Part shown: positions 3,967 through 27,011 of the stretch, piece by piece | How the letters are laid out: each line of letters begins with the position of its first letter | Position numbering within the stretch: position 1 is the first letter of the stretch | Source: Nanoarchaeum equitans Kin4-M | Lineage (GTDB): Archaea; Nanobdellota; Nanobdellia; Nanobdellales; Nanoarchaeaceae | DNA: 32,000 nucleotides | Reading direction: 5' to 3' | Assembly: GCA_000008085.1 (NCBI GenBank) | Contig: AE017199.1 | Span: forward strand, 390,001-422,000 | Notes under the pieces: model-generated | What the model was told of the DNA's origin: nothing | Database searches by the model: none | What the model saw: only the letters and a program-made list of their open reading frames with translations | Made by a program: the position numbers and the translations under genes

Positions 3967-6900
3967 GGCCACCACCGTCCGCAGGACCGCTGACCCCGCC
4001 CGGTGGATGCCTGGGCTCGGGAGCCGAAGAAGGGCGTGGCAAGCTGCGATAAGCCAGGGGGAGGCGCACGCAGCCGTTGATCCCTGGATCCCCGAATGGG
4101 ACCTCCTGCCCGGGGGTTAACCCCGGGCGCCCCGATAAGGGGCGGGAACGCGGGGAAGTGAAACATCTCAGTACCCGCAGGAAAAGAAAGAGAAATTCGA
4201 TGGCGGGAGTAGGGGCGACCGAAACCGCCGTAGCCCAAACTGAATCCCGTAGGGAAACCTACGGGAGATGTGGGGTTGTTGGGGGTGGCGGCTTTCCCTC
4301 CCGCGGGAACCCGAACTCCGGTGGAAGTCCGGGGCCGTAGAGGGTGACAGCCCCGTAGGGGTAACCGCGGAGGGAGTGCCGCCACTTCCAGAGTACCGCG
4401 CCTCGGATATGGCGCGGGAAGCTGGGGGACACACGCCCCCAAGGCTAAATACTCCCCGAGTCCGATAGCGGACTAGTAGGGTGACCGAAAGGTGAAAGAG
4501 AACCCGTGGAAGGGAGTGAAAAAGAGCCTGAAACCGGGCGGGGATAGTCAGGTGGGGCCGGTTAAGCCCCCGGGCAAGGAACCCCCGGCGACGGGGTAGT
4601 ACTTGCCCGGGGGCTAGCCGGTTCCACCGTACGTTCGGGAGCACGTGCGGGGGAGTGTGCCCGAGTGGCGAGGTTAAGGGGATAAACCCCGAAGCCGTAG
4701 GGAAACCGAAGGCCCGCAGCCCTTATGGGCGAGGGGCCGCGTCCTATACGGGCGTAAGTCACTCGGGCACGACCAGAAGCCCGGCGATCTACCCCGGGGC
4801 AGGGTGAAGCGGGGTTTTTCCCCGTGGAGGCCCGAAGGGGTGGTGGCCTATCCCCTCCTCTGACCCCGGGGTAGGGGCGATATACCAATCGAGCCGGGTG
4901 ATAGCTGGTTCCCGCCGAAATGGGCTGCAGTCCAGCCTCGGCGGAGGCACCCTCGGGTGTAGAGCGACGGATTCCCGTGGCAAGGGGGTTAACCCCACCA
5001 CGGGAGTCCAACTCCGAAGCCCGAGGGGCCGTAGATGCCGGGAGACGGGGGCGGCGGATAAGCCGCCGTTCCGAGACGGGAACAACCGAGACCGGGGTTA
5101 AGGCCCCTAAGTGCCGGCTAAGTGGCTGGAAGGGTGTCCGCTCCCTAAGACACCGGGGATGTGGGACTAGTAGTGTCCATCATCTAAGGAGTGTGCAACA
5201 ACTCACCCGGCGAGGGAGCGGGCCCCGCAGATGGACGGGCCTAAGCCGGCCGCCGAGACCCCGGGCCGGGGATCCGATGGATCCCCGTGCGGTAGGCGGG
5301 CGTCCCGGTGGCCTAGAAGGCGGGCCGTGAGGTCCGCTGGAGCCGCCGGGAATGAGAATCCCCGCGTGAGTAGGAGCAAAGAGGGGTGAGAAGCCCCTCC
5401 GCCGAAAGGGAAAAGGGTTCCCTGGCAATGACCATCAGCCAGGGGTGAGTCGGTCCTAAGGCCGGCGGTAACTCCGCTCGGCCGAAAGGGAAAGGGGTTA
5501 ATATTCCCCTACCGCCCGGGTAGGCGCGGCAACGCCAAGCCCTACTCCCGACGCCTGGGGCTAGGCCGACCGCGGATTTCCCGCGGCCAACCGGGATAGG
5601 GCCGGGGAGTGCCATTATGGCGAGAACCGGCCTAAACCCGGGACGGGGCCCCCGTATGGGGGCTTCGGCCGAGGCCCTGGGCCCATGAAAAGGGAGTAGG
5701 GAACGATCCCGGGCGACCGTACCGAGAACCGTGACAGGTTCCCTGGGTGAGCAGCCTAAGGCGGTGGGGTATAACCTGGCCGAGGGAAATCGGCAAATTG
5801 GCCCCGTATCTTCGGTAGAAGGGGTGCCTGCGGTCGTGGGGTAATCCTGCGACCGCAGGTCGCAGTGACAAGGGCGGGCCGACTGTTTACTAAAAACATA
5901 GCCTCCGGCAAGCCCGAAAGGGTGTGTACCGGAGGTGACGCCTGCCCAGTGCCGGTACCTGAACCCCCCGTCCAAGGGGGCTAAGGGCCGGTAAACGGCG
6001 GGAGTAACTGTAACTCTCTTAAGGTAGCGTAGTCCCTTGCCGGTTAAATGCCGGCTCTGCGAACGGCGTAACGAGCTCGCCACTGTCCTCGGCCAGGGCC
6101 CCCTGAAAACGCCGTTCCCGTGGATAGGCGGGAGAGGCCCGGTGGGAAGAGAAGACCCCGTGAAGCTTAACCGCAGCCTGTCGTTGCCCCGTTGTCCCCC
6201 ACGCTCAGCGTAGCGGGGAGCGATGAACCGGCCCCTCCGGGGGTCGGGGATGCGCCCATGAGACACCCGCCGTGGGGGACAACGGGGCTAACCCCGAAAG
6301 GGGGACAGCGGCAGGTGGGCGGTTTGGCTGGGGCGGCACACCGCCGAAAAGATATCGGCGGTGCCCAAAGGTCGGCTCAGGCGGGTCAGAAATCCGCCGT
6401 AGAGTGCAAGGGCAAAAGCCGGCCTGACACGGCCCTTTACAAGGGGCCGTGGCGGGAAACCGCGGCCTAGCGAACCCCGGTAGCCCCCGTGTGGGGCTTC
6501 GGGACGACGGAAAAGCTACTCCGGGGGTAACAGCTTGGTCGCGGGCGAAAGTTCCCATCGACCCCGCGGTTTGAGACCTCGATGTCGGCTCTTCTCACCC
6601 TGGCCGTGCAGCAGCGGCCAAGGGTGGGGGTGTTCACCCATTAAAGAGGAACGTGAGCTGGGTTTAGTACGCCGCGAGGCAGTGTGGATTCTATCTACCG
6701 GGCCTGTTCGGCGGCTGAGGGGAAGGACGGCCTAGTACGAAAGGAACGGCCGTCCGGCGCCTCTAGTCGACGGGGTGTCCGTATGGGCAGCCCCGGCAGC
6801 CACGCGCTAGGGGGTAAGGGCTGAATGCATCTAAGCCCGAACCCCTCCCCGAAAAGAGCCGCCGATCCCCCTCGGGTAGAAGACCCGGTTGATGGGGGGG

Positions 6901-6978
6901 CGGTGGAAGCCCCGAGGGTTTCCGAGGGGCGAGCCGGCCCCTCCCAATCGGGGGGTGGTCCTGCGGACGGTGGTGGCC
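3967..6978 (+). rRNA. rrl: 23S (LSU) rRNA including its terminal processing stem
   Basis: Contains conserved LSU blocks GGTGGATGCCTGGGC, GAAGGGCGTGGCAAGCTGCGATAAGCC, GGGGAAGTGAAACATCTCAGTACC, TTAAGGTAGCG and CTGAATGCATCTAAGCC. Nt 3967-3988 (ggccaccaccgtccgcaggacc) is the exact reverse complement of 6957-6978. It is very GC-rich in an AT-rich context. Mature ends lie somewhere inside the stem. Confidence 0.95.
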
Positions 6979-11276: not shown

Positions 11277-12291
11277 CCCACATTTTTGGATATAAACCAG
11301 GTTTCATAAATACTCTTTCTATATCTACAGCTATTCCTCTTTTCTTTTCTAACATTTCTTTAGAATCCATAAGGGCTATACCAATAGCAACTAATTCTCC
11401 TTTTAATGTATGTATCGAAACTAAATCGCCTTTCTTTATATTGCTATAAAGCTTGGCTATTCCTGGCACTGCTAAATTGGCCCCATGCACAATTGCAGCA
11501 ACAGCACTATCTAAAATATATATTTTTTTCAAATGTTTTACAGCCTCTTCTACAGGTAAAAACACTTTCCTTATATATTCTTCGTTCCCTTCTTCTTTCC
11601 AAAAATATAGAGAATCCACTATGTCTTGCAAATATACCGAATTGTTTTCATGGAATGGCCCAGACTTTATTCTTCTTAATTCTTGCATATGTGCCCCAAC
11701 TCCAAGCTTTACTCCTATATCATGGATTAGCTTTCTAATATATACTCCCCCTTGGGTAGAAACTCTAAATAAAACATCTTTCCCATCTATCTCTATTATT
11801 TTAATACAATAAACTTTTTTCTTTCTAGGTCTCTTTTTTACAGCACTTCTCAATGGGGGGGTTTGTATTATAGTACCTACAAATTTGGACATAACTTTAA
11901 TTATATCTTTTTCGCTAACTTCTTTATGCAAATGCATTAGAGCTACATACTCTTTACCTGCTATTAACAAAGTTTGTAAAACTTTTGTGGCTTCTCCAAT
12001 TGCTATAGGCAATACCCCAGTTACTTTTGGGTCTAAAGTACCACCATGGCCCGCTTTTACACCAACTATGTCTCTTACCCACGCTACAACTTGATGTGAA
12101 GTGGGCCCAGAAGGTTTGTCCAAATTTATTACAGAATATTTTAATAATCTCTCTATTGGTCTATTATAAGGATCTTCGCCCCATTTTTCATTAGTTTCAG
12201 CTTCTTTTTTAACCCATATTTCATATTTTTCTAACTCCCATGGTAAAGGGCATTCCTGCTCTTCTAAACATTTAGAGCAGAATATTCGCAT
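11263..12291 (-). CDS. cbf5: H/ACA RNP pseudouridine synthase Cbf5 (TruB family with PUA domain)
   Basis: INLDKPSGPTSHQVVAWVRDIVGVKAGHGGTLDPKVTGVLPIAIGEATKV. I moved the start from GTG 12309 to ATG 12291 (MRIFCSKC...), which has a TTTTTATA box at the -28/-26 position (+ coordinates 12312-12319). Confidence 0.9.
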   Translation of the reverse strand: MRIFCSKCLEEQECPLPWELEKYEIWVKKEAETNEKWGEDPYNRPIERLLKYSVINLDKPSGPTSHQVVAWVRDIVGVKAGHGGTLDPKVTGVLPIAIGEATKVLQTLLIAGKEYVALMHLHKEVSEKDIIKVMSKFVGTIIQTPPLRSAVKKRPRKKKVYCIKIIEIDGKDVLFRVSTQGGVYIRKLIHDIGVKLGVGAHMQELRRIKSGPFHENNSVYLQDIVDSLYFWKEEGNEEYIRKVFLPVEEAVKHLKKIYILDSAVAAIVHGANLAVPGIAKLYSNIKKGDLVSIHTLKGELVAIGIALMDSKEMLEKKRGIAVDIERVFMKPGLYPKMWVSQG

Positions 12292-16637: not shown

Positions 16638-17576
16638 GTGAGGGGAATAAACGCGCTAATAGCAATTATTGTTTTAGTGGCAATAGTGGGTTTAGCTGCT
16701 GTAAGCGTTATAAGCTTTGTACAAAAATCCATATCGCAACAACAAAAAGAGATAATACAAAAAAATGAATTTAACAAATTCCATACTATAGGGAAAATAG
16801 CCATTAGAACGGAAACCCCTTATGCGGACAAAGATACTATAGTAAATATTAGAATAGATTTGAAACCAGTACAAGATATAGTATCTAAATACGGCAGTTT
16901 TGCCTTATGTGATGACCCAAGCTGTTCTGGAAATAGATATTATTATTGCTGGGAAACTCCTAATGGGGAATGTGTAAGAGATTTGAACAAAAATTGGAAT
17001 AAATATATTATTTGGGTTAGAATTGATAGATTCTATTCGCCCATTGTCCTATATATGGTTTATGGGAAGGGCAAAACAAATGTTGACGGGAAAGACATAT
17101 TTTTATTATATACAAACGGTTCTTATTTAGATGGTTTTGAATCCCAAGGGGAAGTTACAACAAACAATGGAATAATAGAGCTAAAAAATGCGTCTTCTTT
17201 AGTTACTAATAGTTATGCGATTAAAGAAAAATACAATTTAGTTGCTCGATTACAATTCCAAATCAAAAACAATAACAAAACAACAATTAGTTTTAATGTA
17301 ACCGACCAAGTATATATTAAAGGGCTAGATGTCTATAAAGGAAACGAAAAAATAACAACTTTGGAAGCAAATACCAATTATTTATATATAAACAAATTGC
17401 AAGGCTATCCTAAAGAGAATATATACATTATAAAAGGAAAACAAATAGTTTTACCTTATGGAAATGATAAAGTCTCTTTTACAATAAAAACAACAGACAA
17501 TTCAGATGTGTTAATAGATTGGATTATGCTATATTACGAACCAATAAATGTTAATGTGTATGTAGAAAAAGAATAA
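16638..17576 (+). CDS. large pilin-like or surface protein with a class III signal peptide
   Basis: MRG/INALIAIIVLVAIVGLAAV has the basic-Gly cleavage context followed by a hydrophobic helix. IIWVRIDRFYSPIVLYMVYGKG weakly resembles the DUF2341 strand motif (tentative). The stop TAA overlaps the tRNA-Pro discriminator position. Confidence 0.7.
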   Translation: MRGINALIAIIVLVAIVGLAAVSVISFVQKSISQQQKEIIQKNEFNKFHTIGKIAIRTETPYADKDTIVNIRIDLKPVQDIVSKYGSFALCDDPSCSGNRYYYCWETPNGECVRDLNKNWNKYIIWVRIDRFYSPIVLYMVYGKGKTNVDGKDIFLLYTNGSYLDGFESQGEVTTNNGIIELKNASSLVTNSYAIKEKYNLVARLQFQIKNNNKTTISFNVTDQVYIKGLDVYKGNEKITTLEANTNYLYINKLQGYPKENIYIIKGKQIVLPYGNDKVSFTIKTTDNSDVLIDWIMLYYEPINVNVYVEKE

Positions 17577-17679: not shown

Positions 17680-18399
17680 TTATAATTTATTTATTGCTTC
17701 CAAAATTCTTTCATAACATGCCATTGGTATTCTAAATGTGCCTTCCCATTCATCTAAAGTATTGCCTTTAGAGTCTTTAATTACTATCTTTGGTACTCCA
17801 TATACATTGTATTTGTCCGCCCAATCTGGGAATTCATATGCCTCTATCATATAAGCGTGCACTTTATTAGAAATTAATCCTAATTGATGGGTTGCTTCTG
17901 TAGCATAAGGACAATTGGGACATGTTGGAGTAATAAAAACATAAACATATATTGGTTCTTGCAACTTTTGATCTATCTCTTTTGCTAGCTCTATTGCTTT
18001 TGGTGGTAGCATTGGTTCGCCAGTACCTTTTGTTACTATGTCATCTAAAAATGGAGGCATTTCTTCTCCGAAAGGCAAACCATAATATCTAACATTAGGG
18101 CTATCTTCGAAAAATAGTATGGGCCCACAATATTTAGATTCCCCTTCAGGGCAAAATTCTTTTTTCTCACTTTTATCATAAACTTTATAGTCTATCTTGC
18201 CATTACTTATTTCTTTTAAATCGGACAATAACATTTCGGCCATTTCATTAGCATCCATATCATGATGGCCAGTTTCATCATGTACATGTAATGGTTCTCT
18301 ATCTTTGTCTACCACTAAACCAAAAACTACTGGGTTTTTTAATTTTTCAAATTCCTTTTTTAACAATTCTGCATCTTGTGGGGAAAATAACTTTGGCAT
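17680..18399 (-). CDS. protein disulfide oxidoreductase (two-thioredoxin-fold, glutaredoxin-like)
   Basis: YVYVFITPTCPNCPYATEATHQL and VYGVPKIVI form a thioredoxin-fold CxxC active site. The size and two-unit layout resemble the Pyrococcus PDO family. Only one CxxC is present. Confidence 0.7.
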   Translation of the reverse strand: MPKLFSPQDAELLKKEFEKLKNPVVFGLVVDKDREPLHVHDETGHHDMDANEMAEMLLSDLKEISNGKIDYKVYDKSEKKEFCPEGESKYCGPILFFEDSPNVRYYGLPFGEEMPPFLDDIVTKGTGEPMLPPKAIELAKEIDQKLQEPIYVYVFITPTCPNCPYATEATHQLGLISNKVHAYMIEAYEFPDWADKYNVYGVPKIVIKDSKGNTLDEWEGTFRIPMACYERILEAINKL

Positions 18400-18445: not shown

Positions 18446-19198
18446 ATGAAAGAGGAATGGAAAGTCTTTAGAGGTTTTCTAGATAATTATACTTTAAAAA
18501 ATTTAGCCAAACTAGAAAGCTCTGGTTATTTGGATAGCTTAGAATATATTGTTGCAGAGGGTAAGGAAAGCGTAGTAATTAAAGGAAAATACGAAGACAA
18601 CGATATCGCTATAAAAATTTATAGAGTGATGAACATAAATTGGAAAGATTTTCATCGCTATCTAAGACAGGATAGAAGGTTTAAGGGCATTAGATGGAGT
18701 AGAGTAGAAATAATTAACGAATGGGTTAGAAGGGAATATTCTAATCTTATGAGAGCTTACAAGTATGGTATTAATGTGCCAAGACCAATATTTTATAGGG
18801 GCAATGTTTTAGCAATGGAATTTATTGGCGATCAATATCCAGCACCTAAGCTAAAAGATATAGATTTTGATGAACAATCTATAAATAAGGTTAAAGAGAA
18901 CCTATCTAAAGATTTGGAATTGTTAGTTAAAAAAGCCAAAATAGTGCATGGCGATTTAAGCCCATTCAATATTTTATACTATAGGGAAAAACCCTATATA
19001 ATTGATGTTTCTCAAGCAATTCCAATAGATTCGCCAGAAGCAATAAACTTATTAAAAAGGGATTTTTCTAATATAAACTTCTTTCTAAAGAAATATGGGC
19101 TTTCTTTGGATAGTACTTTATTAGATGATCTAATATTATTCATAAAGAGAAAAACCAGTAATGATATAGAGCTATTTACTAAACCAGGATTGCCTTAA
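18446..19198 (+). CDS. rio1: RIO-type serine/threonine protein kinase Rio1
   Basis: GKESVVIKG...IAIKIYR, WVRREYSNLMRAY, LAMEFIG and IVHGDLSPFNIL...IIDVSQAI are RIO-domain motifs. There is no N-terminal wHTH. Confidence 0.85.
   Translation: MKEEWKVFRGFLDNYTLKNLAKLESSGYLDSLEYIVAEGKESVVIKGKYEDNDIAIKIYRVMNINWKDFHRYLRQDRRFKGIRWSRVEIINEWVRREYSNLMRAYKYGINVPRPIFYRGNVLAMEFIGDQYPAPKLKDIDFDEQSINKVKENLSKDLELLVKKAKIVHGDLSPFNILYYREKPYIIDVSQAIPIDSPEAINLLKRDFSNINFFLKKYGLSLDSTLLDDLILFIKRKTSNDIELFTKPGLP
18924..18976 (+). repeat. 53-bp tract identical to 22588-22640 (rio1 copy)
   Basis: tagttaaaaaagccaaaatagtgcatggcgatttaagcccattcaatatttta is identical base for base in both kinase genes. It encodes VKKAKIVHGDLSPFNIL. 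Confidence 0.95.
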
Positions 19199-19863: not shown

Positions 19864-21900
19864 ATGAAATATTCAAAATTCTTATTCACTTGGCTAGTTT
19901 TATCATCAGCATTATCTCTAGTATGGCCTGCTAACTTTCCATTAGTATCGAAGGGAGAAAAACTTGTTATTGGAAAAGGTTCAAAATTAGTTATTGCACT
20001 TCCGGGCCAAAGCGAGAATAAAAATGAGAACAAACAAGAACCACAAAATACCACTAGCCAAAAACGTAATAAGCATTTGCTATTAGTAATAAAAACCCAA
20101 AAGAATAATTTTACCATAAATGCGAGTGATTTAAAAGTAGACAATATATGTAAAATAGAAAAACTGTGGGTTGAAAGCAGTTTGGGTAAAGAATGGGATG
20201 TTAGATTCATTTTCAAAAATGGATTAACTTCTAACAACATTTGTATCAATGGGTTTAAAAGCAGTTATACATACACAACTCAATCAAAAGAAATAATTTT
20301 TGACAAACCTGTTACTCTTACAAAACTTTGTGTTTATGGAGATATAGGTAAATATGGAGGAGACATAAAAGTATATATTAATGGTAAATATGTTGGTACT
20401 ATAAAACATGATAACTTTTTTGATGCAATTTGTATACAGCCAGTCCCCCCAACCAATAGCTCAAACAAAAGATATGTACCTGTTCCCAATTACGTATGTA
20501 CTAAATATAAGCCAGCATGTAGGAAAGAGGTTAGGTGGCCTGTTCTCTGGGAAGAAAAATTTGTATGTGAATGGGATCCAAATGCTAGCCAAAAGTTTTA
20601 CCCAGGGGTTAAAGAGTTATTAGATAAATATGAAGAATGTTGTGCATACAAAAATGGCTATATTGAATGTTACCCATCTCTATGTGCAAGTAATAAAATA
20701 AGCGGTTTGCTTAAAGCAATACATAGTGCCAAGGTTTGTGTAAGCAAGGAGCAATCAGGTTACTACTTTTATGTATGGGAATACGGTACAAAATGTGCAA
20801 AATGGGGCCCGTATCAATGGTATGACACTCCCCCCAATGATAAAAACTATACTTGCACTCGTGAGTATAGGTGTATAGAATATAAAACCTACTGTGGAAA
20901 ATGTATTCGCACCATTACTAAACTTGGAACCTGTACTAAACCAAAGTATTGTACTCGTCCTAAATATTGCACTAGAACAAAATATTGTACTAGGACAAAA
21001 TACTGTACTCGGGACAAATACTGTAAAAAGAGGGTGTGTGATATGATGATGTATTTCAACCCCTTCTTCTCCCCCCCAACAATAATTGTACCTGCATCTA
21101 TTAAACTACCGCTTCCTGGGAAGTGTATTGCATCTCATGAGGAAAAATACAAGTGTGGAACGCAAAGATATGCTTGTGGTACTGAGAGATATCCTTGCGG
21201 TACTGAACAATATGTATGTGGCATTGAAAAGTACCAATGTGGAACGGAGGTATATACGTGCCGTAAAAAAGAGAAAATAATATTGTATAATATAGAAGAA
21301 AGTAGTTGCTCGGGGGAATGTAGAAATAGATATCCAAAATGCGTAAAGGGCAAATATATGTATAAATGTGAAAAATGTCTACAATATGACCCTGTACTAG
21401 TAAACAGTTACCTAACTCCCCCTTACTATAAGTATAACGCACTCGTTGGGGATTATAAGTGTATAAATAATACCTATCAAGATGTAAAGTCAATAAGATT
21501 TGAATTAAGTTCAAAAATAGATGAAAACGATTTCTGTGGTTATCCGTTTATGGCACGCCTACAATTCTATTTGATTTCTGCTAATAACAATACCACACTG
21601 AAAGTAAATAACGAAACAATAAAACCAGAATCCGTAGAATCTGTTGATGTACAAGCCACAAAGATAGAGTTTGCTTATCCTGAAAAGTTTGAGGGATATG
21701 TCCTATTAAATGTGTGGGGAGAAGGTAACTTTACTAAAAACGAATCTTCTGCATTGAAGGTTAGAGAAAAAGATGGTAAAACATTAGTTAGCCCATTGCA
21801 TGCCATTAAAAGATTTGCAAGAAATGCCAGAAAGAAAATGAAAAGCTTTATAGACAATGCCCAAAAGAGATGTCTATTCCCATTCTGGCCCTTCTGTTAA
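19864..21900 (+). CDS. Cys-rich secreted protein with two tandem peptide-repeat arrays
   Basis: N-terminal signal-like MKYSKFLFTWLVLSSALSLVWP. Dozens of Cys residues. The arrays are CT[KR][PTD]KY x5 and CG[TI][EQ]xYx x5. C-terminal ...KRCLFPFWPFC. No homolog recognised. Confidence 0.75.
   Translation: MKYSKFLFTWLVLSSALSLVWPANFPLVSKGEKLVIGKGSKLVIALPGQSENKNENKQEPQNTTSQKRNKHLLLVIKTQKNNFTINASDLKVDNICKIEKLWVESSLGKEWDVRFIFKNGLTSNNICINGFKSSYTYTTQSKEIIFDKPVTLTKLCVYGDIGKYGGDIKVYINGKYVGTIKHDNFFDAICIQPVPPTNSSNKRYVPVPNYVCTKYKPACRKEVRWPVLWEEKFVCEWDPNASQKFYPGVKELLDKYEECCAYKNGYIECYPSLCASNKISGLLKAIHSAKVCVSKEQSGYYFYVWEYGTKCAKWGPYQWYDTPPNDKNYTCTREYRCIEYKTYCGKCIRTITKLGTCTKPKYCTRPKYCTRTKYCTRTKYCTRDKYCKKRVCDMMMYFNPFFSPPTIIVPASIKLPLPGKCIASHEEKYKCGTQRYACGTERYPCGTEQYVCGIEKYQCGTEVYTCRKKEKIILYNIEESSCSGECRNRYPKCVKGKYMYKCEKCLQYDPVLVNSYLTPPYYKYNALVGDYKCINNTYQDVKSIRFELSSKIDENDFCGYPFMARLQFYLISANNNTTLKVNNETIKPESVESVDVQATKIEFAYPEKFEGYVLLNVWGEGNFTKNESSALKVREKDGKTLVSPLHAIKRFARNARKKMKSFIDNAQKRCLFPFWPFC
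20932..21024 (+). repeat. five 18-nt coding repeats (C-T-K/R-P/T/D-K-Y) plus a closing Cys codon
   Basis: tgtactaaaccaaagtat / tgtactcgtcctaaatat / tgcactagaacaaaatat / tgtactaggacaaaatac / tgtactcgggacaaatac / tgt. The Arg codons differ between units (cgt, aga, agg, cgg). Confidence 0.9.
21154..21261 (+). repeat. five 21-nt coding repeats (C-G-T/I-E/Q-x-Y-x) plus a closing Cys codon
   Basis: CGTQRYA CGTERYP CGTEQYV CGIEKYQ CGTEVYT C. The units differ at synonymous and variable positions. Confidence 0.9.
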
Positions 21901-21929: not shown

Positions 21930-22772
21930 GTGCTAGACAATATAAGTGCTGCGATATTAAGACAGTTAGATTATTTATCAAAACATTATGAATGGGTTCC
22001 GTTTGAGCAATTAAAGAAAAGACTGGACTATAACGAAAAAATAATAAAGAAAAAAATAAAAGAATTGCTAAGAAAAGAGTATATCCAAGGAATACCGCAT
22101 GCTAAATATAATGAATGGGCCTTTAAAATTACTTCTAAAGGCTTAGACGCGATAGCTTTCCATGATTTGCAAAAGAACAAAGTAGTAAAAAAATTATTAA
22201 ACCCAATAGGTATGGGAAAAGAAGCAGAAGTGTATTTAGCCTTAGATTTTGACGATAATCCTATTGTTGTAAAAAAGCATTTATTTGATAGGGCCAAATT
22301 CAAAAAAATAGCCAAATCCTTAGCATATGCTTCTATTAAATGGAGAGCAAAACAATTGGGCAAAAAACTATACGAAATAAATGTGCCCAGAGCAAAAGCT
22401 CAAATAGAATCCTATGTTTTAGAAAAACTATACTACATGGGTTTCCATGTGCCAAAGCCCATATCTATTAATAGGCATATTGTAGTAATGGAAGCTATAT
22501 TAGATAATGGTTTTCCTGCAAAGCAATTATCTAAGCTAAAACCTGACAAAGAATTGGGTTTAAAGATATTGGAAGAATATGATAATATAGTTAAAAAAGC
22601 CAAAATAGTGCATGGCGATTTAAGCCCATTCAATATTTTAGTAAAAGGTGGAGAATACTATTTCATAGATTGGGCCCAAGCGGTGCCTAGCGATTATGAA
22701 GAAGCAAATATATTATATAAAAGAGATATTGAAAACATAAAAAAATTCTTTCATTTAGACGATACTATGTGA
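21930..22772 (+). CDS. rio2: RIO-type kinase Rio2 (N-terminal winged helix plus RIO domain)
   Basis: The N-terminal ILRQLDYLSKHYEWVPFEQLKKRL...ITSKGLDAIAFHDL is wHTH-like. It is followed by IGMGKEAEVYLA and IVHGDLSPFNILV...FIDWAQAV. GTG start with a TTTATA box about 25-26 nt upstream. Confidence 0.85.
   Translation: MLDNISAAILRQLDYLSKHYEWVPFEQLKKRLDYNEKIIKKKIKELLRKEYIQGIPHAKYNEWAFKITSKGLDAIAFHDLQKNKVVKKLLNPIGMGKEAEVYLALDFDDNPIVVKKHLFDRAKFKKIAKSLAYASIKWRAKQLGKKLYEINVPRAKAQIESYVLEKLYYMGFHVPKPISINRHIVVMEAILDNGFPAKQLSKLKPDKELGLKILEEYDNIVKKAKIVHGDLSPFNILVKGGEYYFIDWAQAVPSDYEEANILYKRDIENIKKFFHLDDTM
22588..22640 (+). repeat. 53-bp tract identical to 18924-18976 (rio2 copy)
   Basis: Same 53-mer. The flanking sequence diverges immediately on both sides. 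Confidence 0.95.
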
Positions 22773-25809: not shown

Positions 25810-26991
25810 TTAGGGGTATAACCAACTCTTTAAAGATTTTATAACATCTTTTGCTTTATTCTCAAATCCTGAAGACAAAACATCTAAATCGTATAATGAG
25901 TATACTTCGCTAACATTTCCTGCAGTTCCATTGGTGTCATCTTCACATTGCTCAAAACTTTTGTCATTCATTATCAAAGATATCGTGGGCTCTGCTATTT
26001 TATATCTAAATGGATATGCATAGATAATATCCAATTTCGCTTTTTTACCTAAAACTATGTCTGTACCTTCAATATCATTATCGTTACATTGTAATTTAGT
26101 ATTGTTAGCAGTTAAACTACATTCCAAAGCCTCATTAAATGGACCCGAATCTTTTATATAAGTATAACTCTTAATGGTGTATGTATTGTTTTTATCATCA
26201 TGTGTTCCATCTGATATCGTTACGTTACAACATTTTGTGATGTCTTGCCCATTTAATAATACTTTCACAACAAGGGCGTCTTTTAGATCATTACCATCTT
26301 TTATTGGAATAACATTGTTGTTTTTGTTAAACTTAATTATAATTTTGTAATCATTGTATATCGATTCTATTTTCACATTTGTATTAACATCAGAAGGTAA
26401 AGAGAATTTTTTTGATACATCTCCAACATTGCAATTACCCATCGGGGAATCTTTGTGTTTAGCAACTCTCGTACATACTTCATATTCTTCTATGCCTCCT
26501 ATTACTCCAACCAAATATATCGGAATAGTTAATTCAGGTGTTTGTAAATAAGAAGTATCTATTTGGAACATCACATAATATGGCACAGTGTTTTTCTCTT
26601 TTAAACCAACATATACTGCTTTGCTAATATCTTTCTTAAAAGTAAACTTATTCATATAGTAAGTGGTGCTTCCACTGGTTGCTGTGTTTGTTACTCCCTT
26701 TTCAGATTTCAAAGCCCTACTACATAAAACATTATCCACAAAAAGATAAACACTGTCATTAGTTAAATTAATAGGCAAATGGTTATTTATTCTCATAGGA
26801 ATGGGTATTTTTTGTCCTAGGTTAACCATATAACTATTTTTTCCTTCATAAGTTATAGAAACTGCGTTACCAGAACTATAATATGTTTGTTCCTCCGTAG
26901 TATTATTTATTGGTTCTACTTGGGGTTGGTTGCTTAGATTTACGCAACCAGAAAGCATAAATAATATGCCTAATAGTAATAGATAATACAT
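25810..26991 (-). CDS. secreted protein with a lipobox-type signal peptide
   Basis: I moved the start from TTG 27006 to ATG 26991 (MYYLLLLGILFMLSGC, lipobox L-S-G-C), because palindromic TTTAAA at 27012-27017 is exactly 26 nt upstream of 26991. The protein is Asn/Thr-rich with scattered Cys. Confidence 0.7.
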   Translation of the reverse strand: MYYLLLLGILFMLSGCVNLSNQPQVEPINNTTEEQTYYSSGNAVSITYEGKNSYMVNLGQKIPIPMRINNHLPINLTNDSVYLFVDNVLCSRALKSEKGVTNTATSGSTTYYMNKFTFKKDISKAVYVGLKEKNTVPYYVMFQIDTSYLQTPELTIPIYLVGVIGGIEEYEVCTRVAKHKDSPMGNCNVGDVSKKFSLPSDVNTNVKIESIYNDYKIIIKFNKNNNVIPIKDGNDLKDALVVKVLLNGQDITKCCNVTISDGTHDDKNNTYTIKSYTYIKDSGPFNEALECSLTANNTKLQCNDNDIEGTDIVLGKKAKLDIIYAYPFRYKIAEPTISLIMNDKSFEQCEDDTNGTAGNVSEVYSLYDLDVLSSGFENKAKDVIKSLKSWLYP

Positions 26992-27011
26992 ATTTATTTT
27001 TCGCAATCTTA

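Follow-up and report, generated by a model that had tools for sequence, protein, structure and literature searches.

By its inferred fold type, NEQ462, a gene of the archaeal symbiont Nanoarchaeum equitans Kin4-M, appears to be nearest to disulfide-laddered beta-solenoid repeats, in which regularly spaced Cys residues line a narrow coil. In the beetle antifreeze protein TmAFP, every coil of 12 residues is stapled by a pair of Cys spaced six residues apart, and the grass antifreeze beta-roll is assembled from 7-residue half-repeats, two per coil. Homopolymer tracts make surface-protein genes of bacterial pathogens phase-variable (contingency genes), and polymerase slippage at homopolymers rescues genes in reduced endosymbiont genomes; to our knowledge, the homopolymer contingency mechanism has not been established in Archaea. 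Here we analyzed NEQ462 within a 32,000-nt stretch of the N. equitans genome (contig AE017199.1, positions 390,001–422,000; hereafter the window, in whose numbering all positions are given). The gene has been annotated as a hypothetical protein since 2003. Our preferred reading, which we hold tentatively at a probability of roughly 45%, is that NEQ462 is exported, glycosylated and rich in disulfides, a protein of the surface or a secreted one, whose two double-ladder modules would form a rigid heat-stable stalk.

NEQ462 and its cysteine ladders

The NEQ462 open reading frame (ORF) encodes 678 aa plus a stop from an ATG start, and contains the following features.

19864–21900, + strand: NEQ462 coding sequence in the in-frame state with seven C residues (C7); a listed ORF, with gene order and sizes as in NEQ455–NEQ467 and the exact product also present in JGI sample 3300004930.
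19864–19935, + strand: N-terminal signal-like segment (aa 1–24, MKYSKFLFTWLVLSSALSLVWPAN), the sole hydrophobic segment (KD19 maximum 1.43), with SignalP, PredSi and transmembrane-domain (TMD) predictions all 'Yes' in the published Table S1.
aa 25–70, + strand: polar linker.
20074–20463, + strand: N-terminal beta-rich region (aa 71–200) with 4 Cys ~30 aa apart and 3 N-glycosylation sequons, from low-confidence AlphaFold2 (AF2) secondary structure and composition.
aa 201–327, + strand: Cys-rich core.
20845–21039, + strand: ladder module copy A (aa 328–392), with decayed heptads CTREYR/CIEYKTY/CGKC, a linker and perfect basic hexads (net +12), from BLASTP, Cys spacing and charges.
20932–21024, + strand: period-6 Cys ladder, five CT[KR]xKY units and a closing Cys (aa 357–387), from sequence, unit identity and Tandem Repeats Finder (TRF).
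21040–21123, + strand: Pro-rich, Cys-free inter-module spacer (aa 393–420), from sequence and composition.
21071–21077, + strand: poly-C tract (C7; codons S403-P404-P405, in the spacer), whose length sets a full-length or a 413-aa product, from assembly comparison.
21124–21378, + strand: ladder module copy B (aa 421–505), with perfect heptads, a linker and a decayed Cys/Lys/Tyr ladder (CSGEC-RNRYPKC-VKGKYMYKC-EKC), 12 Cys, from BLASTP and Cys count.
21154–21261, + strand: period-7 Cys ladder, five CG[TI]xxYx units and a closing Cys (aa 431–466), from sequence; the stretch matched by most HMMER hits.
21394–21783, + strand: C-terminal beta-rich region (aa 511–640) with 6 of the 12 N-glycosylation sequons, from AF2 and composition.
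21796–21861, + strand: cationic amphipathic helix (~aa 645–666, HAIKRFARNARKKMKSFIDNAQ), with the highest hydrophobic moment in NEQ462 (muH 0.75) and the sole long AF2 helix (H647–666).
21871–21897, + strand: C-terminal aromatic loop between two Cys, C670-LFPFWPF-C678, from sequence.

Cys accounts for 40 residues of the protein (5.9%, an even number), compared with 0–2.3% in the 18 other window ORFs. The period-6 array reads CTKPKY-CTRPKY-CTRTKY-CTRTKY-CTRDKY-C, with Cys at positions 357, 363, 369, 375, 381 and 387, and the period-7 array reads CGTQRYA-CGTERYP-CGTEQYV-CGIEKYQ-CGTEVYT-C. The 678-aa ORF, its high Cys content and both arrays lie exactly where a first-pass annotation of this DNA had put them, and the Pro-rich spacer and the CLFPFWPFC end that it described are both present. 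Between-unit DNA identity was 56–83% for the hexads and 48–76% for the heptads, TRF detected the arrays weakly, and the four Arg residues of array 1 use CGT, AGA, AGG and CGG, as listed before. Because the DNA identity of the units is low (48–83%) and TRF detection is weak, the periodicity is kept by selection on the peptide, without recent slippage, which upholds the earlier claim of selection on the peptide rather than on a DNA repeat. When the Cys-rich core was shuffled, an equally spaced run of at least six Cys arose 0.2% of the time; NEQ462 has two such runs, each with additional conserved residues.

Gene order and product sizes in the window match those that Giannone et al. 2011 list for NEQ455–NEQ467 (Table S1; PMC3149612), making the target gene NEQ462. 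The matched sizes are 776 aa for methionyl-tRNA synthetase, 246 for TatD, 312 for an unknown protein, 239 for a thioredoxin-fold protein, 250 for RIO1, 160 for a pyrophosphatase, 678 for NEQ462, 280 for RIO2, 397 for a GTPase, 444 for RNase J and 153 for S13. In the same table (PMC3149612), NEQ462 scores 'Yes' for SignalP, PredSi and TMD, in keeping with a basic MKYSK N-terminus followed by a hydrophobic stretch that was predicted from sequence to be a signal peptide. N-x-S/T sequons are enriched (12 observed and 4.8 expected, P=0.0014), with 10 of the 12 located outside the Cys-rich center and none in the ladders, a pattern typical of archaeal proteins that are exported and glycosylated. The proposal of an exported or surface protein is strengthened by these published predictions, by the sequon enrichment, by the C-terminal cationic amphipathic helix with its Cys-closed aromatic loop, and by the relatives described below, all of which are secreted or surface proteins.

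Since spectral counts are recorded in the published proteomics, the NEQ462 protein is made: adjusted counts were 84 in the co-culture and 39 in purified free cells (PMC3149612), so that expression at the protein level is established. When the spectral-count values (RSpC) were renormalized to the N. equitans proteome, NEQ462 fell from 95.4 in co-culture to 18.3 in late-released free cells, a ratio of 0.19 (~5-fold depletion), compared with ~0.9–1.8 for its neighbors and the S-layer proteins and ~0.9 for the envelope structural proteins NEQ300 and NEQ236. Among the well-detected proteins of NEQ315–513 (~200 of the 556 rows of Table S1, to which this ranking applies), the NEQ462 ratio was the second lowest, with only NEQ322 (75 aa, 0.11) below it. 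The depletion fits shedding, retention on the host, or synthesis mainly by attached cells. No paper mentioning NEQ462 was found in the literature searched.

Outside the ladders, the N-terminal beta-rich region matched no Pfam family (TcaA_3rd_4th, 14.4 bits; cutoff 27), the helix at ~aa 645–666 is strongly basic, and a CLFPFWPFC-type ending is not shared by any other window ORF. The N- and C-terminal regions are not duplicates of each other within NEQ462, and the window holds no paralogue. A small internal duplication, KGEKLVI-GKGSKLVI, lies just past the signal segment (19948–19995, aa 29–44). Within the N-terminal beta-rich region, aa 94–190 carry the hydrophobic-Cys-hydrophobic motifs NIC, NIC, KLC and AIC, 29–34 residues apart, a possible third and longer periodicity.

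The double-ladder module and its relatives

The first-pass annotation had described two distinct arrays. Both arrays are real; their distinctness did not hold, since they are the halves of one composite module, present twice. This module, as judged from sequence comparison, would be ~85 residues long and contain 12 Cys, in the order acidic heptads (CG[TS]E.Y.), linker and basic hexads (C.R.KY). A decayed ladder trails the perfect heptads of NEQ462 and decayed heptads precede its perfect hexads, so the protein carries two tandem copies with complementary decay. BLASTP aligned copy A through the linker to the bacterial protein P0006 (NEQ462 aa 327–391 to P0006 158–226, E=5e-12) and copy B to the whole module encoded on the bacterial contig L128 (NEQ462 aa 429–508 to module residues 1–80, E=2e-6). 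In both P0006 and L128 the module has 12 Cys (5+2+5) and a linker 20–21 aa long, and its charge is −4 in the heptad half and +3/+4 in the hexad half. Copy B of NEQ462 has 12 Cys (7+0+5) and charges of 0 and +5, and copy A has 11 Cys and charges of +1 and +12; the heptads-linker-hexads order is present in both, with one half decayed in each.

An exhaustive HMMER search of 1.84 billion representative proteins returned one self fragment and 13 repeat-only matches, and no full-length relative of NEQ462. Two of these matches were informative, P0006 (E=4.3e-7) and P0007 (E=1.8e-5); P0002–P0005 and P0008–P0014 were set aside as Cys-less GTEQVQ repeats or translated satellites. P0006 is a 323-aa PEP-CTERM protein with a signal peptide, encoded on a 4.7-Mb bacterial contig (TIGR02595, 18 bits, cutoff 16; PF07589, 21.8 bits, cutoff 20.7), and in its array a linker that contains Cys joins four CG[ST]..Y. 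heptads to four C.R.KY hexads. Its paralogues P0015–17 share the flanks and lack the arrays, which marks the module in P0006 as an insertion. P0007 (150 aa, with a signal peptide) carries the heptad ladder only. The L128 contig (bacterial, 25–30% GC) was retrieved by a DNA pattern for hexads alone, yet has heptads immediately upstream: a single frame runs through heptads (YKCGTESYVCGSEDYEC...), linker and hexads (...CSRDKYCSRDKYC) inside a DUF5874 hairpin-repeat surface protein. At L128 1797–1799, a lone in-frame TAA separates a 449-aa secreted DUF5874 ORF from the frame that holds the module and a further six hairpin repeats. This stop probably stems from a nonsense mutation or a misassembly within a single surface-protein gene (~805 aa); recoding TGA did not lengthen the L128 ORFs.

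The three module proteins share the peptides CGTERY, CGTESY and C.RPKY or C.RDKY, and each lies in a long ORF, with units that differ from one another and an export signal at the N-terminus. The same module is inserted in two unrelated surface proteins of bacteria, and all relatives are secreted or surface-located. P0006 and L128 resemble NEQ462 in the heptad-linker-hexad order and in being secreted or surface proteins; they differ in carrying one module each, in unrelated scaffolds with non-homologous flanks, whereas NEQ462 is archaeal and has two copies, and the L128 gene, unlike NEQ462, is broken by the in-frame TAA.

Other searches added little to this set. In 5.8 billion proteins, a word-indexed search with NEQ462 found no relative, the same search with P0006 found array-less PEP-CTERM paralogues only, and a profile of the module found P0007 and no further members; a protein scan of genome contigs yielded no relative of NEQ462, and a PDB sequence search with the module gave only a chance match to a Fab complementarity-determining region. 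Pfam and NCBIfam, applied to the full length and to the isolated arrays, gave nothing above cutoff (best TcaA_3rd_4th, 14.4 bits, and Dickkopf_N, 14.7 bits), in agreement with the first-pass annotation, which had recognized no family. Ladder DNA patterns in genomes, metagenomes and viral contigs matched mostly perfect 18-/21-bp satellites in short or wrong-frame ORFs, L128 being the one useful hit; the chance expectation for these degenerate patterns left out tandem DNA repeats. As an observation in its own right, perfect 18-/21-bp tandem repeats that translate to Cys-Gly-Thr or Cys-x-Arg-x-Lys-Tyr 'ladders' are common across many bacteria (hits L002–L156; for example L010, L015, L028, L030 and L049), and such translated satellites enter protein databases as pseudo-proteins (e.g., P0005, P0010 and P0011).

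NEQ462 itself belongs to none of the named families considered. It is not a PEP-CTERM protein, having no NCBIfam/Pfam match to that group and no C-terminal transmembrane helix, and ending in ...KRCLFPFWPFC. It is not metallothionein-like either, with single Cys 6–7 residues apart, one Tyr per unit, a length of 678 aa and 5.9% Cys; CxxC-type pairs occur outside the perfect ladders (CGKC at 344–347 and CEKC at 502–505). The double-ladder module is very rare and lies outside Pfam and NCBIfam. Within the libraries and literature searched, the module, its bacterial counterparts and the frame-switching tract described below are newly described.

Structural leads come through a relative and through spacing. 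The P0007 heptads pass the Pfam threshold for PF21300 LbR_Ice_bind, the grass antifreeze beta-roll (35.3 bits, cutoff 30), and align to ryegrass 3ULT (E=8e-6), with Cys replacing Ser before each turn Gly. The hexad ladder of NEQ462 aligns gap-free over 32 residues, with Cys in register, to the beetle antifreeze beta-helix 1EZG. NEQ462 may resemble the grass beta-roll (PF21300; 3ULT) in its 7-residue half-repeats, two per coil, and P0007, its heptad relative, scores above the gathering threshold for that family. It departs from the beta-roll in a core Tyr rather than Val, Cys in every unit and a length of 5 units (~2.5 coils), and ice binding would be irrelevant at 90 °C. With the Tenebrio molitor thermal hysteresis protein (THP; 1EZG; 12-residue coils), the NEQ462 hexads share Cys at every sixth residue followed by Thr; they differ in lacking the TCT Thr ladder (NEQ462 reads Y-C-T), in being strongly basic (net +12) and in having no Pfam match. 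The similarity between NEQ462 and 1EZG lies in the spacing and the Cys-Thr pair, and is best regarded as an analogy. These comparisons suggest a narrow, disulfide-stapled beta-solenoid or rod as our best inference. Protein disulfide oxidoreductase (PDO) marks the disulfide-rich proteomes of thermophiles, and N. equitans shows disulfide bonding (PMC3177088); together with the even Cys count, this makes disulfide use in NEQ462 plausible.

A frame-setting poly-C tract

The full-length 678-aa frame requires C7 at 21071–21077. Both the window and JGI 3300004930, the latter coding for the exact 678-aa product, have C7, whereas eight assemblies (JGI 3300014779, JGI 3300014945, PRJEB12287 runs, PRJEB52977 runs and SRR4136252) have C8. 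One Ion S5 assembly has C9, which we did not count as credible because Ion S5 data are error-prone at homopolymers. The C8 product is 413 aa long and ends in ...FFSPPNNNCTCIY. Its signal peptide, N-terminal region and module A are preserved; module B is missing, as are the C-terminal region and the tail. Protein databases contained C-terminal fragments of NEQ462 only, P0001 (180 aa) and P0018 (205 aa). Among the contigs that encode these fragments, L161–L167 are otherwise identical to the window, L159 and L160 differ by two substitutions plus assembly noise, and all have the extra C. Tract lengths were taken from consensus assemblies, a level at which phase variation, polymerase slippage and a one-off culture mutation are not separable.

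PRJEB12287 and PRJEB52977 are re-sequencings of one laboratory's Kin4-M DNA, alone or in mock communities (PMC4787001, PMC9652401), and SRR4136252 and the JGI samples, of untraced provenance, have contigs that match the window. Since the traced data are laboratory re-sequencings and the others match the window, no assembly speaks for the natural population. Apparent 'environmental relatives' of NEQ462 were rejected, as their contigs are re-sequencings of the laboratory strain. Two of these contigs carry differences of their own. Compared with the window, the JGI contig L159 carries one additional T at 16685, a non-homopolymer site in NEQ458 (16638–17576, + strand), and NEQ458 is called at 296 aa in L159 and 312 aa in the window; this is a second difference from later strain DNA. 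The JGI contig L160 is identical to the window up to 23183 (in the GTPase gene), after which (L160 3953–5673) it runs on into AbiEii and DUF6922 genes that the window lacks; a chimera assembled from a mixed or mock-community sample is the probable explanation, a real variant being less likely.

A control G7 tract at 11855–11861, in a housekeeping pseudouridine synthase gene, was G7 in all eight covering assemblies, including the same samples. Of the five G/C runs of at least 6 nt outside rRNA, three lie in NEQ462. Downstream of the poly-C tract, the frame is open over 273 codons, compared with 23–31 stops in the other two frames (chance 7e-10); because this frame is still open, the C8 disruption is recent, reversible or bypassed. 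Frame-changing alleles specific to this tract therefore occur within one strain, as in a phase-variable tract, at the level of consensus assemblies. NEQ462 resembles bacterial contingency genes in having a G/C homopolymer inside a surface-protein coding sequence, one-base alleles that toggle the frame and an equal-length housekeeping tract that is stable. It differs from them in showing two credible alleles, the traced ones from one laboratory lineage, at consensus level only.

Proposed role and genomic setting

In our preferred reading, NEQ462 would be Sec-exported, N-glycosylated and cross-linked by disulfides, and would reside in the envelope or be secreted. Disulfides would staple each ladder into a narrow beta-solenoid or beta-roll in which every coil comprises two units, and the modules together would form a rigid stalk that keeps the beta-rich, glycosylated N- and C-terminal regions apart. 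At the C-terminus, the cationic amphipathic helix and the Cys-closed aromatic loop (CLFPFWPFC) might bind a lipid surface, for which the S-layer-free outer membrane of Ignicoccus would be a likely target. The Ignicoccus outer membrane is exposed, and electron tomography has revealed tethers and a stalk of unassigned composition at the contact site (PMC5468417). NEQ462 could act there as a tether or adhesin, and the poly-C tract might modulate production of the distal half. The complete version of this picture, a host-contact tether anchored in or exported from the symbiont, with stapled solenoids, a tail inserted into the Ignicoccus outer membrane and poly-C slippage switching the distal half, is very doubtful. 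The adhesin or host-contact idea had been raised in the first-pass annotation; its one empirical hint proved to be the ~5-fold depletion from free cells, and otherwise it is inference that the data supported weakly or not at all.

Several observations weigh against the preferred reading. The NEQ462 ladders match neither PF21300 (no match at E≤10 with the full length or the arrays) nor any antifreeze family; because they miss both antifreeze families, the fold proposal is a transitive link combined with a spacing analogy. Without an alignment, the full-length AF2 model had a pLDDT (predicted local distance difference test) of 37.5 and that of the module (aa 326–475) one of 42.2, both unusable. 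The disulfide-stabilized rod proposed earlier gains indirect support, of spacing and transitive fold, through P0007 and 1EZG, and loses ground on these scores and on the missing family match of its own. The N. equitans medium is reducing and sulfidic, and exposed disulfides might not persist there. No homologue was found in any other nanoarchaeon among the 1.84 billion representatives, which leaves a conserved symbiosis function unsupported, and with three to four members the family is small enough for convergence of short repeats to be conceivable. NEQ462 is frameshifted in most of the re-sequenced strain DNA, so that current cultures may fail to produce the protein at full length. As to the depletion, NEQ322, a small and non-secreted protein, is even more depleted from free cells than NEQ462, and the authors of the proteomic study deem the free-cell sample unsuited to differential analysis (PMC3149612).

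Some of these points bear equally on other explanations. NEQ462 might be a purely structural component of the N. equitans envelope, an S-layer-associated or pseudo-periplasmic strut without host contact, in which the ladders confer thermostable rigidity. This alternative draws on the same export and disulfide evidence and is helped by the lack of a homologue in other Nanoarchaeota and of an adhesin domain, by the moderate abundance (RSpC 95) and by bacterial relatives that are generic surface proteins. The envelope proteins NEQ300 and NEQ236, however, keep a ratio of ~0.9 in free cells, compared with 0.19 for NEQ462, and an essential strut is unlikely to tolerate the C8 frameshift of most DNA preparations; we regard this explanation as unlikely, if still worth serious consideration. 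That same frameshift is the starting point of a further reading, not exclusive of the others, in which the gene is in decay and dispensable in laboratory co-culture. C8 would then be an inactivating mutation that arose once and became fixed in a sub-line, or else C7 would be the product of a rare reversion, and the tract polymorphism would carry no regulatory meaning. C8 is indeed found in 8 of the 10 assemblies of credible tract length, the traced ones all deriving from one laboratory's DNA, the sole C9 came from homopolymer-error-prone Ion S5 data, and no orthologues exist elsewhere. Decay is rather improbable given a downstream frame that is fully open for 273 codons while the other frames hold 23–31 stops, the occurrence of both C7 and C8 in sequenced DNA, the invariance of the equal-length housekeeping G7 tract in the same samples, the concentration of three of the five G/C runs of at least 6 nt outside rRNA in NEQ462, and the detection of the protein by mass spectrometry.

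The chemistry of the ladders could also be read differently, with surface-exposed Cys that stay reduced in the sulfidic vents and chelate metals or bind sulfur or polysulfide. The 40 Cys in regular arrays, the reducing, sulfidic habitat and medium and the few CxxC-type pairs outside the ladders (CGKC 344–347, CEKC 502–505) lend themselves to such a thiol-based binder. We find it highly improbable, as the ladders consist of single Cys 6–7 residues apart without CxC/CxxC pairs or His, are Tyr-, Lys- and Arg-rich, unlike metallothionein-type sequences, and match no metal-binding family in Pfam; paired disulfides are a better match for the even number of Cys, 12 per module, conserved across three lineages. 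The likeness of NEQ462 to P0006, L128 and P0007 might, finally, be convergent or low-complexity noise and the arrays a lineage-specific expansion, given that most HMMER and nearly all DNA-pattern matches were translated perfect 18-/21-bp satellites and that the profile search of 5.8 billion proteins brought nothing more. Such an explanation is scarcely credible in view of the agreement of three proteins in order, 12 Cys, linker length and charge asymmetry, the identical hexapeptides CGTERY, CGTESY and C.RPKY or C.RDKY, the presence of heptads in L128, which had been found through hexads alone, and the fact that every one of these arrays lies in a long ORF, its units not identical and its N-terminus bearing an export signal.

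The first-pass annotation had also pointed to a disulfide oxidoreductase gene 1.5 kb away. The gene is there (thioredoxin-fold NEQ459 at 17680–18399, 1.5 kb upstream of NEQ462); a specific link between the two was rejected, as two unrelated genes, RIO1 and the pyrophosphatase gene, intervene in mixed orientation and NEQ459 is a generic marker of the PDO type, a type of protein tied in the literature to cytosolic disulfide bonding (PMC3177088). As to whether NEQ462 could be the substrate of a radical S-adenosylmethionine enzyme, in the manner of ribosomally synthesized and post-translationally modified peptides, no such enzyme was adjacent in the Pfam calls of the window or of contig L001, L128 having been checked in part. 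The RIO1 (NEQ460) and RIO2 (NEQ464) genes share a 53-bp stretch of 100% identity (18924–18976 and 22588–22640; 73% over 154 nt). Arranged as direct repeats at a distance of 3,664 bp, these stretches flank the pyrophosphatase gene and NEQ462; their identity could reflect gene conversion, and they are a potential recombination substrate. Two more predicted exported proteins of the window have no family match, and both were detected by mass spectrometry: NEQ458 (312 aa, no Pfam match) and NEQ468 (25810–27006, − strand; 398 aa, unnamed in the published table), which has 9 Cys and, at 2.5 per 100 aa, more densely spaced sequons than any other protein of the window. At 3978–6967, a complete 23S rRNA gene of archaeal type stands alone, with no adjacent 16S or 5S, at 65% GC in a 31% GC genome.

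For work with this organism, the tract has a practical consequence: most public Kin4-M re-sequencing represents the frameshifted allele, and current cultures or mock-community DNA may reflect the truncated protein. The 12-Cys double-ladder module is a small domain apparently common to Archaea and Bacteria, and could serve as a compact, rigid and extremely heat-stable spacer in protein engineering. How N. equitans recognizes, attaches to and taps Ignicoccus has been a question since 2002, and no protein has been assigned to the tethers or the stalk (PMC5468417). NEQ462 is a concrete candidate, being export-predicted, detected by mass spectrometry and depleted from detached cells, with a putative lipid-seeking C-terminus and a tract that governs this C-terminus. 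If true, the poly-C switch would have no described precedent among archaeal symbionts as a homopolymer contingency switch.

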